64,000 bases of DNA, from contig LSNR01000002.1 in the NCBI GenBank assembly GCA_003056165.1, positions 2,726-66,725 of the forward strand, written 5' to 3'. The DNA is from Parcubacteria group bacterium M6-OD1-3 (lineage in GTDB: Bacteria > Patescibacteriota > Minisyncoccia > Moranbacterales > UBA9337). Below, piece after piece: positions 32,729 to 38,570 of this stretch. The notes beneath the pieces are model-generated. The model was given only the letters and a program-made list of their open reading frames with translations, ran no database searches and was not told the origin of the DNA. Positions within the stretch are counted from its first letter, which is position 1. Each line of letters starts with the position of its first letter. The position numbers were made by a program, and so were the translations under genes.

Positions 32729-32829
32729 ATTTAGAATTTTTAATTTTCAATTTTGATTGAAATTCTAACTATCTAATTTATCATTCATTGTTGATAAAAT
32801 CTCTTTAGCTTCATTTTTTTAGTTTCATC
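32729..32829. repeat. decayed copy of the four-helix-bundle IVS-type element: one inverted terminal repeat (ttagaatttttaattttcaattttgattgaaattctaact) plus an internally deleted 3' remnant of the 4HB gene
   Basis: Compared by eye with 36495-36620. Confidence 0.55.
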
Positions 32830-32844
32830 TATTTATCATCAGTT

Positions 32845-33332
32845 GTCATCCTGGAAGTTAGAAATTCTTAAACGAACTTTGTCTGCCGATAGGCAGGCGA
32901 AGTGAGTTTGTAGAATTTCAACTATCTGGGATCTCAATAAAATTGCGCTAAACTTTACAAATTAATATATAAATCCTTCCATTCTGAATTTTCTTTTTCA
33001 ATTAATTCTATTTTCCATTTTCTCCTAAATCTTTTCAGCTTCTTTTCTCTTTCTATAGCACTAATTATATTCTCTGTTTGTTCATAGTATACTAGCTTAT
33101 CTAGGTTATATTTTTTCGTAAATCCATCTATATGTTTTTGCCTATGTTGCCAAATTCTCCGTTGCAAATTTCCAGTCACGCCAATATATAATACTCCTCT
33201 TTTTTTATTGGTGACAATGTAGATGCAATACTGTCGCATATTTTAGTTTTTTTATTTTTACTGAGATCCCGGACAAACTATTTTTCTATTACTCGCTTCG
33301 CTCATAATGAAAAATATGTTTTCCAGGATGAC
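32845..33332. mobile_element. about 490-bp GIY-YIG mini-element with about 90-bp imperfect inverted terminal repeats (ends gtcatcctggaa / ttccaggatgac; sub-terminal gcgaagtgagtttgtagaa…ctgggatc vs gatcccgg…ctattactcgcttcgc)
   Basis: Inverted repeats read directly; sits between atpD stop and atpC start. Confidence 0.65.
32955..33239 (-). CDS. GIY-YIG nuclease (small stand-alone family)
   Basis: 'CIYIVTNKKRGVLYIGVTGNLQRRIWQH' GIY…YIG signature. Confidence 0.8.
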   Translation of the reverse strand: MRQYCIYIVTNKKRGVLYIGVTGNLQRRIWQHRQKHIDGFTKKYNLDKLVYYEQTENIISAIEREKKLKRFRRKWKIELIEKENSEWKDLYINL

Positions 33333-33340
33333 ATAAAAAA

Positions 33341-34711
33341 TTACTCTTTCACTTCCTCAATTCCGCCTTTCATATAAAATTCTTGTTCAGCAATATTGTC
33401 CATTTTACCATCCAGAATTTTTTTGAAACTTTTAATTGTATCTTTCAATTTAACATATTTCCCTGGAGTTCCTGTGAATTGCTCCGCCACAAAGAAAGGT
33501 TGTGATAAAAATTTCTGAATTTTTCGTGCTCGTGCCACCGTTATTTTGTCCTCATCCGACAATTCCTCCATTCCTAAAATTGCAATAATATCCTGTAAAT
33601 CTTTATATCGTTGTAAAACTTGTTGTACTCCACGCGCCACATCATAATGTTCTTGTCCAATAATGTTTGGATCTAAAATTGTTGAAGCACTATCCAGCGG
33701 GTCAACTGCTGGATAAATTCCCAATTCTGAAAGTCCACGAGAAAGTACCACTGTTGAATCTAAATGTCCGAAAGTTGTTGCCGGCGCTGGATCAGTCAAA
33801 TCATCTGCTGGCACATAAACCGCCTGTACTGATGTCACTGAGCCTTTTTTAGTTGAGGTAATTCGCTCTTGTAATTGTCCCATTTCCTCCGCTAAAGTCG
33901 GTTGATAACCAACTGCTGATGGAATTCGACCTAATAACGCTGACACTTCTGAACCAGCTTGTGTAAATCGAAAAATATTATCTACAAAAAGTAAAGTGTC
34001 TTTCCCTTCTTCATCACGAAAATGTTCCGCCATTGTTAAAGCAGAAAGTGCTACTCGCTGTCGTGCTCCCGGTGGCTCATTCATTTGTCCGAAAACCAAA
34101 GCTGTCTTATCCAAAACACCAGATTCTTTCATCTCATGATAAAGATCGTTTCCTTCACGAGTTCGCTCTCCAACACCAGCAAACATTGAGTATCCGCCGT
34201 GTTCTTGAGCAATATTTCTAATAAGCTCCTGAATAATAACTGTTTTACCAACTCCAGCTCCTCCAAAAAGACCAATTTTTCCACCTTTCACAAATGGACA
34301 AATTAAATCAATAACTTTAATTCCTGTTTCCAAAACTTCCGCCTCAGTTGCTTGTTCAGAAAATTTTGGTGCCGAACGATGAATTGGACTTCTTTTTTCA
34401 GTTTTTACTTCTTCCTTGCCGTCAATCGCCTCACCTAATAAATTAAACATTCTTCCTAATGTTACTTCACCGACTGGTACTGTAATCGGCGCCCCTGTAT
34501 CAACTACTTCCATTTTCCTCCTTAAACCATCAGTAGATCCCATTGCTACCGCCCGCACTTTATTACTACCCATATGTTGATGCGTTTCTAAAACTAACCT
34601 TCCATCATTTTCCAAGCTTATTTCTAAAGCATTGTAAATTTTCGGTAAAGCTTCTTCAAACTCTACATCCACCACCGGACCAATTACTTGTACTATTTTT
34701 CCTTTGTTCAT
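33341..34711 (-). CDS. atpD: F-ATPase beta subunit
   Basis: P-loop 'GGAGVGKT'; 'DELSDED' region. Confidence 0.95.
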
Positions 34712-34868
34712 ATTTTTACTTATTTTTAAATTTTAATTTATAATTTAAAGTTTTTTTACAATCTCCAATTTACAATCTATTTTCATAAATTGTAAATCTT
34801 GAATTATAAAATATTATTTTTTAACCCCGTTCTACAATTTGATTTATTCATATCCAAATCACCAATTC

Positions 34869-35267
34869 TTATCCCTCGTTAATAAATGGATTATTTCCCT
34901 CAAATAATATTTCCCTCACTTCATTGTTGATAAACCTTTCTGACACTCCATATTTTTGACTATATAATATACTAACTGGACCAAAAATTGCCTCATTATA
35001 GTTGAATCCCATTTTTTTACTAACTTTTTTTACAACTTTCTCCGACTTTCCTTCAATTTCTACAAACGGTTCTAAAAATGGCCATTCGTCAATCATAATT
35101 TCTACACCATCTACTTTCCAAATTTCTCGTCTAGTTTCCTGGTATGATTTTTTTTGACAGCCGATTGCTTTTAAAAATAATTCTGCTTGCTTGTAATTAT
35201 CAACTTCCAGTTCTATCTCTTTCTGACCTTTGATATCAGATTGATTATCAATGGATTTAAAAGTCAA
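34869..35267 (-). CDS. CYTH-like (CyaB/ThTPase-type) domain protein, possibly C-terminal half only
   Basis: 'VDGVEIMIDEWPFLEPFVEIEG' resembles the CYTH C-terminal strand; inserted between atpD and atpG. Confidence 0.35.
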   Translation of the reverse strand: MTFKSIDNQSDIKGQKEIELEVDNYKQAELFLKAIGCQKKSYQETRREIWKVDGVEIMIDEWPFLEPFVEIEGKSEKVVKKVSKKMGFNYNEAIFGPVSILYSQKYGVSERFINNEVREILFEGNNPFINEG

Positions 35268-36483: not shown

Positions 36484-36494
36484 TTTTAATTTAA

Positions 36495-36962
36495 TTTAGA
36501 ATTTCCAATTTCGAATTTTGATTGAAATTCCAATTATTTAATTCATTATTTCTTGTCCTTTTTCATTGTTGATAAAATTTTTCCAAATATCAATGTTAAT
36601 TCTTGTGCTTCATTCCAAATCTTTCTAGCTTCATCTTTTTTAGTTTCATCAGCGGTAGAAATCATTCTCAACCAATGTTTAGTTTCTTGAATTTCCTTCT
36701 TACAAATATGAATTTTATTTCTAAAATCTTTTTTTGAACTAGCTCCGTTAGCTTCCATGTAATTAGCTCCAACACTAGTAGCTGAACGAACTATTTGTGA
36801 TATTAATGGGTGCATTACAATATCCTTCTTAATTGTCCTACAAAAAATAATTACACTTTCTTCAAATTTAGCTGTCCGTTCTTCTAAATCAAAATTTTTA
36901 GACATCTATTTCAAAATTAATTCATTAAAGCATTCAATCAAAATTGGAAATTGGAAATTAAT
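36495..36962. mobile_element. IVS-type mini-element: four-helix-bundle protein gene flanked by about 45-bp inverted terminal repeats (core aatttccaatttcSaattttgattgaa)
   Basis: Left arm 36495-36545 and RC of right arm 36918-36962 align by eye. Confidence 0.65.
36546..36905 (-). CDS. four-helix-bundle protein (rRNA-intervening-sequence protein family)
   Basis: 'LISQIVRSATSVGANYMEA' signature. Confidence 0.8.
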   Translation of the reverse strand: MSKNFDLEERTAKFEESVIIFCRTIKKDIVMHPLISQIVRSATSVGANYMEANGASSKKDFRNKIHICKKEIQETKHWLRMISTADETKKDEARKIWNEAQELTLIFGKILSTMKKDKK

Positions 36963-36969
36963 CTACATC

Positions 36970-38460
36970 TTAAATCGTAAAATTGGTTATCGCTTTTTTC
37001 AATTTCGCCTCCATTCCCTCGCTCAACTCTCCACTCTCACGAATTTTATCCAAAACATCTTGGTGCATTGATTTCATATATTTGTGAAACTTCATTTCCC
37101 ACTCTGTAATTTTTTCTACATCTATTTCATCCATAAATCCATTTGTCAAAGCATACAAAATTGCTACTTGATTTTCTACTACTAATGGAGCATATTGTTT
37201 CTGTTTTAAAATTTCCACCGTTCGCTTTCCTCTTTCAATCTGTGCTCGAGTTTTTTCATCCAAGTCTGAACCAAATTGAGCGAAAGCTTCCAGCTCTCTA
37301 AACTGTGCCAAATCCAATCTGATTTTTCCAGCTACTTTTTTCATAGCTTTGATTTGTGCTGCTGACCCTACTCGCGAAACAGAAAGCCCCGCGTTAATTG
37401 CTGGCTTAATTCCTTTATTAAATAAATCTGTTTCCAAAAATATTTGTCCATCTGTAATAGAAATAACATTGGTCGGAATATAAGCGGAAACATCTCCAGC
37501 TTGCGTTTCAATAATTGGCAAAGCAGTAATTGAACCACCACCAAATTTTTCATCCAATTTTGCGCTTCGCTCTAATAAACGAGAATGCAAATAGAAAACA
37601 TCTCCAGGATAAGCCTCTCGTCCCGGTGGTCTTTTTAGAATTAAGGAAATTTGTCGATAAGCCCAAGCATGTTTACTTAAATCATCGTGAATTACTAAAA
37701 CATCTTTTCCTTGATCCATAAAATATTCAGCAATCGCTGTACCTGTGTATGGGGCAATATAAGAAAATGCTGCTGCCTCTGATGCTCCAGCAATCACTAC
37801 AATCGTGTGCTCCATTGCTCCAGCTTTTTCCAACTCCGCCACAATTCTAGCAACTTTTGATTCCTTCTGACCAATCGCCACATAAATACAAATCATATCT
37901 TGCCCTTTTTGATTGATAATTGTATCAACGGCAATGGCAGTTTTTCCAGTTTGACGGTCACCAATAATCAACTCTCTTTGTCCTCGTCCAACTGGAATCA
38001 TTGAGTCAATTGCTTTAATTCCCGTTTGCACCGGTTGATGAACTGATTTTCGTTCGATTACACCTGGCGCAATTTTTTCAATTGGATAAAATTTTTCTGA
38101 TTTTATTTCTCCTTTAGCATCAATCGCTTGCCCTAATGGATTTATAACTCTTCCAATCATTTTTTCTGAGACTGGCACTGAAAGAATTTTTCCAGTAGAT
38201 TTCACTTCATCACCCTCTTTAATTCCCTTATAATCTCCCAGAATCATCACACCAACTTGATCCTCTTCTAAATTCAAAGCTACACCCATTGTTCCATCTG
38301 AGAATTCTAACATTTCCGATGCCATAGCATCATCCAATCCTTCCACGCGTGCTACACCATCACCCACTTCTAAGACCTTTCCGACTTTTTCGGTTTTGGT
38401 TTCGGTTTCAAAACCGGCAATTTGCTTTTTTAATTGTTCTACAATGTAATCTTTTGACAT
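36970..38460 (-). CDS. atpA: F-ATPase alpha subunit
   Basis: P-loop 'GDRQTGKT'. Confidence 0.95.
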
Positions 38461-38477
38461 AAATTTTTCAATTATTA

Positions 38478-38570
38478 ATTTAGCATTTTGAATTTTGATT
38501 GAATGATTTAATGTTAAAATTTTTAATTAAAACATTAAATAACTAAGCTTTCAATCAAAATTCAAAATTT
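38478..38570. repeat. empty MITE-like copy of the 4HB element: two inverted terminal repeats facing each other with about 16 bp between
   Basis: ttagcattttgaattttgattgaatgatttaatgtt / aacattaaataactaagctttcaatcaaaattcaaaattt. Confidence 0.6.

Follow-up and report, generated by a model that had tools for sequence, protein, structure and literature searches.

Intervening sequences (IVSs) in bacterial ribosomal RNA (rRNA), and the S23p open reading frame (ORF) associated with them, have been known for more than 30 years, with the origin of the IVSs and the function of the protein still unresolved (PMC4990558). The IVS of Coxiella, at helix 45 of the 23S rRNA, is a stem-bounded S23p ORF with three repeats of the heptamer GACAGAT; it is cut by RNase III, the enzyme that excises the IVSs of Coxiella, Salmonella and Leptospira alike (PMC4990558). 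A survey of 16S and 23S rRNA genes in the Candidate Phyla Radiation (CPR) reported 23S_rRNA_IVP and GIY-YIG ORFs as well as many ORF-less, non-intron insertions shorter than 200 bp (Tsurumaki et al. 2024, PMC11270868), with ORF-containing and ORF-less versions of one insertion and with several insertion sites in both genes (PMC11270868). Here we describe a family of hairpin cassettes in a 64,000-nt stretch of DNA (hereafter the window) from Parcubacteria group bacterium M6-OD1-3, contig LSNR01000002.1, where a gene for a four-helix-bundle (4HB) protein of the rRNA-IVS family PF05635, flanked by inverted repeats, lies in the F-type ATP synthase (atp) operon and an ORF-less copy of the repeats occupies a site in the 16S rRNA gene. 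The novelty lies in an IVS-type cassette in messenger RNA (mRNA) spacers, of the same family as an rRNA copy and with a strongly constrained protein; no description of such cassettes outside rRNA was found in the literature that we searched, whose coverage is incomplete.

The copies of the repeat family in the window, with the evidence by which each was delimited, are as follows.

36907..36962, minus strand: full copy, upstream arm (5' on the transcript); inverted-repeat search, arm profiles and fold
36546..36905, minus strand: 4HB ORF of the full copy, 119 aa; Pfam, TIGR02436, PDB 2RLD, an AlphaFold2 (AF2) model and the ratio of nonsynonymous to synonymous substitution rates (dN/dS)
36491..36551, minus strand: full copy, downstream arm; repeat search, arm profiles and fold
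38474..38572, minus strand: ORF-less copy in the atpH-atpA spacer; two arms facing each other as a single hairpin
32725..32829, minus strand: decayed copy in the atpD-atpC spacer; downstream arm and remnants of the 3' end of the ORF
23910..24109, minus strand: ORF-less copy in the 16S rRNA gene, with arms at 24036-24089 and 23930-23986; profiles and fold

The arms are AT-rich, about 45-55 nt long, and composed of AATTTNN heptamers and a GATTGAA core. In the full copy the upstream arm begins 7 nt past the atpA stop codon (36970-36972) and contains the heptamers AATTTCC AATTTCC AATTTTG, followed by the core; the inner part of this arm makes up the leader of the 4HB ORF. The downstream arm overlaps the last codons and the stop of the ORF, and about 8 nt separate its end from the atpG start codon at 36483. 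Within these arms of about 50 nt, a core inverted repeat of 27 nt (36500-36526 and 36933-36959) is 96% complementary. When the 489-nt stretch was folded as RNA on the transcript strand its ends paired, with one long stem enclosing the ORF and the whole 486-nt spacer (free energy −89.9 kcal/mol, z −2.8; an equally stable fold in 0 of 100 shuffles). The ORF-less atp copy takes up most of the 126-nt atpH-atpA spacer and consists of two 42-nt arms (38485-38526 and 38527-38568), 79% complementary and with no spacer between them (−29.6 kcal/mol, z −4.8).

In the decayed copy, an arm at 32725-32778 matches the full copy's left end at 87% identity (blastn E 7e-9) and is followed by collinear remnants of the 3' end of the ORF at 32784-32800 (17/17 matches) and 32797-32829 (31/34, 91%, E 4e-4), which are separated by internal deletions. 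Most of the ORF has been lost together with the upstream arm, no hairpin is left (fold z −0.5), and the copy adjoins a GIY-YIG element that starts at about 32836. The ORF is lost by internal deletion, giving rise to hairpin-only copies that resemble MITEs (miniature transposable elements with inverted repeats), with the decayed copy as an intermediate state.

Several tests show that the repeats are related. Their core, AATTTTGATTGAA, occurs 8 times in the window against 2.4 expected, a count reached in 0 of 100 shuffles; profiles built with some arms left out recovered the remaining ones at E-values of 1e-6 to 2e-5; and composition-corrected nhmmer E-values for the arms were highly significant. 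An earlier note on this DNA had read the three atp copies as one family in three states, namely a 4HB gene within inverted repeats of about 45 bp, an atpA-atpH spacer made of two facing repeats, and an atpC-atpD spacer with one repeat plus a 3' remnant of the gene carrying a deletion. Profiles, shuffles and alignment all bear this reading out, the repeats being significantly related at the leave-out E-values just given. The statement of the note that no atp gene is disrupted holds as well. The same note had placed the family within the atp operon alone, a limit that the 16S rRNA copy removes.

That fourth copy is a 200-nt insertion which replaces a 4-nt helix loop (small-subunit (SSU) rRNA model positions ~1157-1161) and folds as one long extension of the helix (−60.4 kcal/mol, z −9.5). 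Its arms were recovered by a profile made from the atp arms only (E 1e-6), and the reverse search succeeded at E 2e-5. Since the 16S arms match the atp arms, this family joins, within a single genome, mRNA-spacer copies and an insertion in rRNA that is of the classical IVS type. The 16S rRNA gene is 2103 nt long because it holds two insertions; the second one, unrelated to the first (24786-25224, minus strand; ~438 nt at SSU model position ~459), has a closing 27-nt inverted repeat of its own (24781-24807 and 25207-25233, 89%), and its 76-aa ORF (24893-25123) had no match in NCBIfam. Rfam at gathering thresholds retrieved from the window only the SSU rRNA and two transfer RNAs (tRNAs). With no intron fold among these matches, and no nuclease domain in the 4HB ORF, we rejected a homing endonuclease or a group I or II intron as the nature of the element.

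The earlier note had called the gene a four-helix-bundle gene. A structure model supports this fold, and the gene is not an anonymous one: it belongs to PF05635, the rRNA-IVS protein family (Pfam score 63 bits, E 3.4e-17, with the cutoff at 33.8), and scores 78.6 bits against a cutoff of 24 with TIGR02436, the intervening-sequence protein (IVP) of 23S rRNA. Searches with Pfam and TIGR02436 profiles found no transposase domain in the ORF. By sequence, the closest solved relative is PDB 2RLD (E 1.7e-13). The AF2 monomer model (mean predicted local distance difference test score, pLDDT, 93.9) has helices at residues 7-23, 31-53, 58-85 and 87-116, and Foldseek placed 2RLD (template modelling score, TM, 0.79-0.86) and 2GSC (TM 0.80-0.85) at the top, followed by Avd. 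The crystals of 2RLD and 2GSC contain five chains each, and by analogy the 4HB protein is probably pentameric. At least 7,996 protein relatives were found at E ≤ 1e-5, the best 120 of which, from many different lineages of Patescibacteria, have identities of 69-89%. The dN/dS of the 4HB ORFs is 0.02-0.13, with dS above 1 and third-codon identity of 0.37-0.66; such strong purifying selection implies that the protein is functional.

The cassettes share with the rRNA IVSs a PF05635 ORF in the loop of a terminal complementary closing stem, heptamers near the ORF, a site at the tip of an rRNA helix (for the ORF-less 16S copy) and, presumably, dependence on transcription by the host. They differ in that three of the four copies lie instead in mRNA spacers of a protein-coding operon and that ORF-less and decayed derivatives coexist in one genome; moreover, the Coxiella ORF is decaying and probably untranslated, whereas the ORF here is under strong purifying selection. 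Excision by RNase III, a trait of IVSs, would extend to the present cassettes by analogy. The 200-nt 16S insertion fits into the class of short insertions described in CPR rRNA genes. That survey dealt with rRNA genes only, whereas here IVP and GIY-YIG cargo with their own stems occupy atp spacers, and the IVP repeats tie an rRNA insertion to mRNA copies within one genome.

The same cassette was found in other genomes. We looked up the genomic places of nine close 4HB relatives, plus one more found by tblastn; L numbers are our handles for the sequences compared.

L139: 4HB gene between RtcB and tmk
L150: 4HB gene after rpsL-rpsG (the rpsG-fusA site), with only the upstream arm
L155: 4HB gene between rnpA-yidC and jag
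L157-163: 4HB gene after a phosphatase-like gene
L124: 4HB gene after an M16 peptidase gene
L143-146: 4HB gene between DivIC and a tRNA
L147: a further cassette locus
L141, L149, L152-154: 4HB gene between atpA and atpG, in three further lineages

At every one of these places the 4HB gene is co-oriented with the gene upstream of it, and everywhere except in L150 inverted repeats of this type flank it on both sides, their duplex energies ranging from −21 to −57 kcal/mol. Across five elements, all retrieved by protein similarity or tblastn alone, a 28-nt arm ending in GATTGAA has a mean identity of 85% to the arms of the other elements, and the arms are conserved beyond the synonymous sites of the same elements' ORFs. 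Since those synonymous sites are saturated, the arm sequence itself is conserved, beyond what pairing alone would demand. Covariation between arms was considered and rejected: similarity is 0.85 between elements and 0.86 within them, pointing to sequence conservation with no compensatory change. ORF-less hairpins with the same arms also lie between co-directional genes in a Falkowbacteria metagenome-assembled genome (MAG), which has three of them in one pilin operon, in a Paceibacterota MAG and in other Patescibacteria, where they abut the stop and start codons of their neighbors. An 18-base arm pattern searched against genome contigs was too loose, yielding mostly chance AT-rich matches, and became usable after re-scoring with the arm profile.

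The atpA-atpG junction offers evidence of gain and loss. None of 13 related atp operons from metagenomes (AtpG 63-85% identical) carries the 4HB gene; the junction spans just 3-21 nt in L126, L131 and L134, and in the other relatives holds hairpins of 100-150 nt from other sequence families. Each related genome repeats its own hairpin family across several atp spacers, a pattern indicative of spread within genomes. L125, for example, has CATTAATCATTGA-type units in five of its spacers, and L134 has 110-nt AT hairpins, nearly identical to each other, in its atpE-F and atpD-C spacers; ORF-less hairpins that are GC-rich and of the GTCATC...GATGAC type were seen in the atpH-A spacer of L127 and the atpG-D spacer of L131. 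The closest 4HB protein, that of L149, is 89% identical to the one in the window with AtpG only 75% identical, whereas L125 and L126 have AtpG identities of 85% and 84%, yet lack the 4HB gene. Furthermore, 4HB proteins from non-atp sites (81-82% identity to the window) are about as close as those from atp sites (79-81%). These incongruent identity matrices suggest movement between sites and lineages, with the atpA-atpG junction as a recurrent or long-held site.

Evolutionary mobility is thus supported by the unrelated loci, the empty junctions, the incongruence and the gene-less hairpins elsewhere. The word selfish, which the earlier note had used, fares less well, given the purifying selection and the presence at atpA-atpG in three other lineages, and since no transposase, definable target-site duplication or recent insertion was found. 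Insertion may have proceeded by transposition at the DNA level or by recombination through the highly conserved flanking genes. In Nealsonbacteria DGGOD1a (L142/L143, 2484-2933), a 149-aa Y1_Tnp gene (PF01797, IS200/RAYT-like) lies between DivIC and the 4HB cassette; L146, with the same 4HB protein, has no Y1_Tnp at that site, pointing to an independent insertion beside the cassette. This gene is a possible lead to a mobilizing enzyme acting in trans.

We consider it fairly probable that these sequences are co-transcribed hairpin cassettes of the IVS type, with a PF05635 gene in the loop of the stem and with MITE-like gene-less derivatives. The membership in PF05635 and the 16S copy of the repeats together favor this frame over that of a generic mini-transposon. 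All positions are sense-oriented and lie in transcribed non-coding sequence (operon spacers or the tip of an rRNA helix), with no gene interrupted. Read-through from the host promoter would transcribe the cassette; in that transcript the stem would fold and could then be cut by RNase III in the manner of the classical rRNA IVSs, which would remove the element from the pre-16S rRNA and split the polycistronic atp mRNA at three junctions. With cutting at the stems, insertions would be tolerable. Judging from their co-conservation, the heptamer arms may be the recognition site of the 4HB protein, the only product of the element, and this protein may act in trans to help copies with and without the ORF to be maintained, processed or spread.

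A number of observations weigh against this explanation. Strong purifying selection would be unusual for a purely selfish passenger, and to our knowledge neither the 4HB fold nor the protein has any catalytic activity. The five contigs of the strain all carry an identical element, so that no recent gain or loss was caught. The gene stands at atpA-atpG in four lineages, in two of which its divergence resembles that of the atp genes, a pattern compatible both with long vertical residence and with repeated insertion. The flanks consist of a few AT-rich bases between stop and start codons and the empty junctions of relatives are too diverged to compare, so that a target-site duplication could not be delimited; the 64-kb window has no transposase gene, and tblastn with the Y1_Tnp of L143 gave no match there. 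Stem stability favors the sense strand in seven elements and the antisense strand in six, and this lack of a consistent bias gives no support for selection on RNA over DNA structure. Finally, co-transcription and cleavage by RNase III are both steps that we infer.

Among other explanations, it seems unlikely to us that the hairpins are native intercistronic RNA signals serving processing, stability or translation coupling, with the 4HB gene as an ordinary resident and the likeness among copies due to constraint or gene conversion. A strong hairpin is indeed present in every atp spacer of the window and in most spacers of the 13 related operons, purifying selection on the 4HB gene is strong, and the gene occupies one and the same junction in four lineages. 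Such an explanation does not, however, account for the ORF-plus-repeat unit in unrelated operons of other genomes, the nearly empty junctions of three relatives, the hairpin families peculiar to each relative, the decayed copy, the copy inside the 16S rRNA, or the incongruence between the 4HB and AtpG trees. Nor do we give much credence to MITE- or REP-like DNA transposons mobilized by a transposase encoded elsewhere (of the Y1/HUH, RAYT or IS200 type; REP, repetitive extragenic palindrome; RAYT, REP-associated tyrosine transposase), with the 4HB gene as a passenger. The terminal inverted repeats, the coexistence of ORF-bearing and ORF-less copies, the Y1_Tnp gene directly upstream of the cassette in L142/L143 (absent in L146) and a fold without a known catalytic role would all suit such elements. 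Against them, the repeats accompany the ORF from lineage to lineage, co-conserved with it, each 4HB subfamily having its own heptamer, which is unlike a random passenger; and there is no transposase in the window or beside 11 other cassettes, and no definable target-site duplication.

The 4HB protein might also be the Avd protein of a diversity-generating retroelement (DGR) or belong to another reverse transcriptase system, with the repeats as template or target. PF05635 does include Avd, a pentameric nucleic-acid-binding cofactor that acts on structured RNA, and our model, which shares its fold, superposes on the Avd structures 4DWL and 8UB7 chain E with TM 0.72-0.80. Sequence identity to Avd is, however, only ~11%, the closest structures (2RLD and 2GSC) are non-DGR pentamers of the S23p type, and the repeats are inverted heptamer arrays with no pair of template and variable repeats. 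No reverse transcriptase lies beside the cassette, whose neighbors are atpA and atpG, or in the other contexts examined, which argues against a DGR, and we hold this explanation to be very improbable. A chance likeness born of low-complexity AT-rich intergenic DNA has practically no probability left: the genome is AT-rich and the 18-base arm pattern did match many unrelated genomes by chance, but the shuffle tests, the leave-out profiles with composition-corrected E-values and the collinear ORF remnant of the decayed copy refute it, and arms were found beside 4HB homologues that had been retrieved by protein similarity alone.

Other families of short intergenic repeats offer partial parallels to the IVS-type cassettes. 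The Correia elements of Neisseria, or NEMIS (Neisseria miniature insertion sequences), on which De Gregorio et al. worked in 2002-2003, are reportedly short spacer elements with terminal inverted repeats that are co-transcribed with their neighbors and form hairpins cleaved by RNase III. Our cassettes resemble them in being intergenic, hairpin-forming and bounded by terminal inverted repeats; there is, however, no sequence relation, and Correia elements, which duplicate a TA target, are not known to have an ORF-bearing master copy or to occur in rRNA. REPs and bacterial interspersed mosaic elements (BIMEs) are GC-rich palindromes of 20-40 nt with a conserved tetranucleotide head and an HUH Y1 (RAYT) partner. 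The cassettes likewise are extragenic palindromes in intercistronic spacers, form genome-specific families and are presumably transcribed as mRNA hairpins, but their arms, 45-55 nt long, consist of AT-rich heptamers, the linked gene is 4HB and the window has no Y1 gene, and membership among the RAYT-associated REPs was rejected on these grounds. As in MITEs, inverted repeats and several copies including ORF-less ones are present; a cognate transposase is not.

The short tandemly repeated repetitive (STRR) sequences of cyanobacteria are intergenic arrays of heptanucleotides. Such arrays have been described with GGGAATC in Xanthomonas and GGGGAYT in Nostoc (PMC4692102) and with TAACTGA in Beggiatoaceae (PMC4679880); they are abundant, often occur as convergent pairs, and have no known function and no protein linked to them (PMC4692102, PMC4679880). 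Tandem 7-nt units, inverted pairs able to form stem-loops and a location within operons are common to these arrays and our cassettes. The difference is that here, and in loci outside the CPR, the arrays directly bracket PF05635 genes.

Within the CPR, 4HB subfamilies other than that of the window, whose heptamer is of the AATTTTG type, have heptamers of their own: AGATACA in L155b and GCTTGTA/GCTGGTA in L059. Outside the CPR we took a small and unsystematic sample of 13 PF05635 genes (one locus on a Lutibacter chromosome and 12 on plasmids or megaplasmids) from Cyanobacteriota, Bacteroidota, Spirochaetota, Chloroflexota and Bacillota. Most of these genes lie inside operons, at the junctions hsdS-hsdR, drmD-pglX, csx2-cas1, RND adaptor-permease and moeA-moaC among others, and the junction of DUF1156 with an HEPN gene of the Swt1 family holds a PF05635 gene in two phyla (a cyanobacterium and a member of the Chloroflexota). 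Most are also flanked by tandem heptamers, usually inverted, for instance the following.

Euhalothece: GTGACCA, 12 units
Bernardetia: GATTAGT, 6 units
Nostoc: GTCGGAG/GTCGGAA
Planktothrix: AATCCCC/AATCGTA
Dolichospermum: TTTGGAA/TTCGTAA

The duplex z-scores of these five loci are −6.5 to −9.6; the arrays of the Treponema and Chlorohelix loci are in direct orientation. A stringent scan found heptamer arrays in four of the non-CPR loci, with 8 of 10 arrays no more than 100 nt from the 4HB gene. On plasmids outside the CPR (L164, L169, L170, L172-L176), PF05635 genes occur inside defense operons, at hsdS-hsdR, drmD-pglX, csx2-cas1, cas2-cas1 and helicase-methylase junctions. The association of PF05635 genes with heptamer arrays may be general and undescribed. 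We put forward, as a tentative idea about which we have considerable doubt, that PF05635 proteins and tandem-heptamer hairpins form one widespread two-part system, in which each protein recognizes its own arms and ORF-less copies are its dependants; the 4HB protein would then act as a sequence-specific recognition factor for its heptamer arms, in the manner of a maturase or transposase. If so, the rRNA IVSs, the short CPR rRNA insertions and at least some of the heptanucleotide arrays (STRR, GGGAATC) would be a single class of element.

The atp operon in which the three mRNA-spacer copies reside comprises the following genes.

40948-41211, minus strand: ATPase_gene1-like ORF
40154-40915, minus strand: atpB
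39813-40079, minus strand: atpE
39202-39693, minus strand: atpF
38587-38988, minus strand: atpH
36970-38460, minus strand: atpA
35527-36483, minus strand: atpG
33341-34711, minus strand: atpD
32301-32720, minus strand: atpC

The arrangement of this region is identical in five public contigs of the same strain. The length of the 16S rRNA gene, the Patescibacteria lineages of the closest 4HB homologues and the metagenomic origin of the related atp operons all suggest an organism of the Patescibacteria/CPR type. Upstream, the operon has a single good promoter-like site (41242-41214, 11/12 matches), promoter scanning being uninformative in this AT-rich DNA apart from that site, and a single terminator-like hairpin lies downstream (32055-32024); the operon scan found no promoter- or terminator-like sites at the inserted elements. 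The earlier note had counted a selfish element in every large spacer except atpB-atpE, a tally that has to be revised. The atpB-atpE spacer holds a perfect 54-nt AT-only palindrome (40099-40152, z −7.4) and the atpE-atpF spacer (39694-39812) another strong hairpin (z −4.2), each of another sequence family, and there is therefore a hairpin in every atp spacer of the window. The atpG-atpD spacer contains a CYTH or class IV adenylate-cyclase-like gene (34869-35470, minus strand), which is conserved in relatives, intact in L125 and L126, and not evidently a selfish element. Its frame is broken after about 4 codons in the window, and an extra A at 35443 in L003-L005 restores it; either the frameshift is polymorphic or the assembly is wrong within a run of A.

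A GIY-YIG family in the same operon follows the same design as the 4HB cassette: in the element at 32836-33335, a long stem, GTCATCCTGGAA.../...TTCCAGGATGAC, closes the element and holds a 94-aa ORF (32955-33239, minus strand) in its loop (z −4.6 for the RNA fold). In the atpF-atpH spacer, a remnant of this family (38995-39161, minus strand) has kept both ends (85-91% identical) and the last 20 codons, and a distant GIY-YIG homologue lies at 15521-15724 (35% identity, E 2e-5). L004 and L005 differ from the window by two patches of substitutions, in atpA at 37041-37125 (18 in 85 nt) and in atpG at 36280-36316 (11 in 37 nt), which are partly non-synonymous and flank an invariant 4HB element, with nearly identical sequence between and beyond them. 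These patches may reflect recombination; no relative matching either patch haplotype was found. Co-conversion as a signature of homing was rejected, the patches not being contiguous with the 4HB element and AtpG showing no gradient of identity along its length. Elsewhere in the window, a 37-nt inverted pair (13366-13402 and 13923-13959) encloses 520 nt, an ORF at 53309-54010 is exactly flanked by two identical GC-rich hairpins in opposite orientation (53282-53304 and 53990-54012), and a 58-nt palindrome spans 49255-49312.

The presence of ORF-bearing, ORF-less, decayed and rRNA-borne copies in one genome is what the long-standing idea of IVSs as mobile elements served by their own ORF predicts. 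It would seem that rRNA IVSs are members of a larger family of hairpin elements, one whose members colonize protein-coding operons too, with rRNA as one among several permissive and highly transcribed targets. The conserved 119-aa protein and its heptamer arm are testable reagents, and the atp mRNA is a candidate site of RNase III processing in the CPR; these results should be of interest to those who study CPR genomes, small mobile elements or the IVSs of rRNA. Should heptamer arrays prove to be a general companion of PF05635 genes, this would provide a first functional handle both on the very large family annotated as "four helix bundle protein" and on heptanucleotide repeats.

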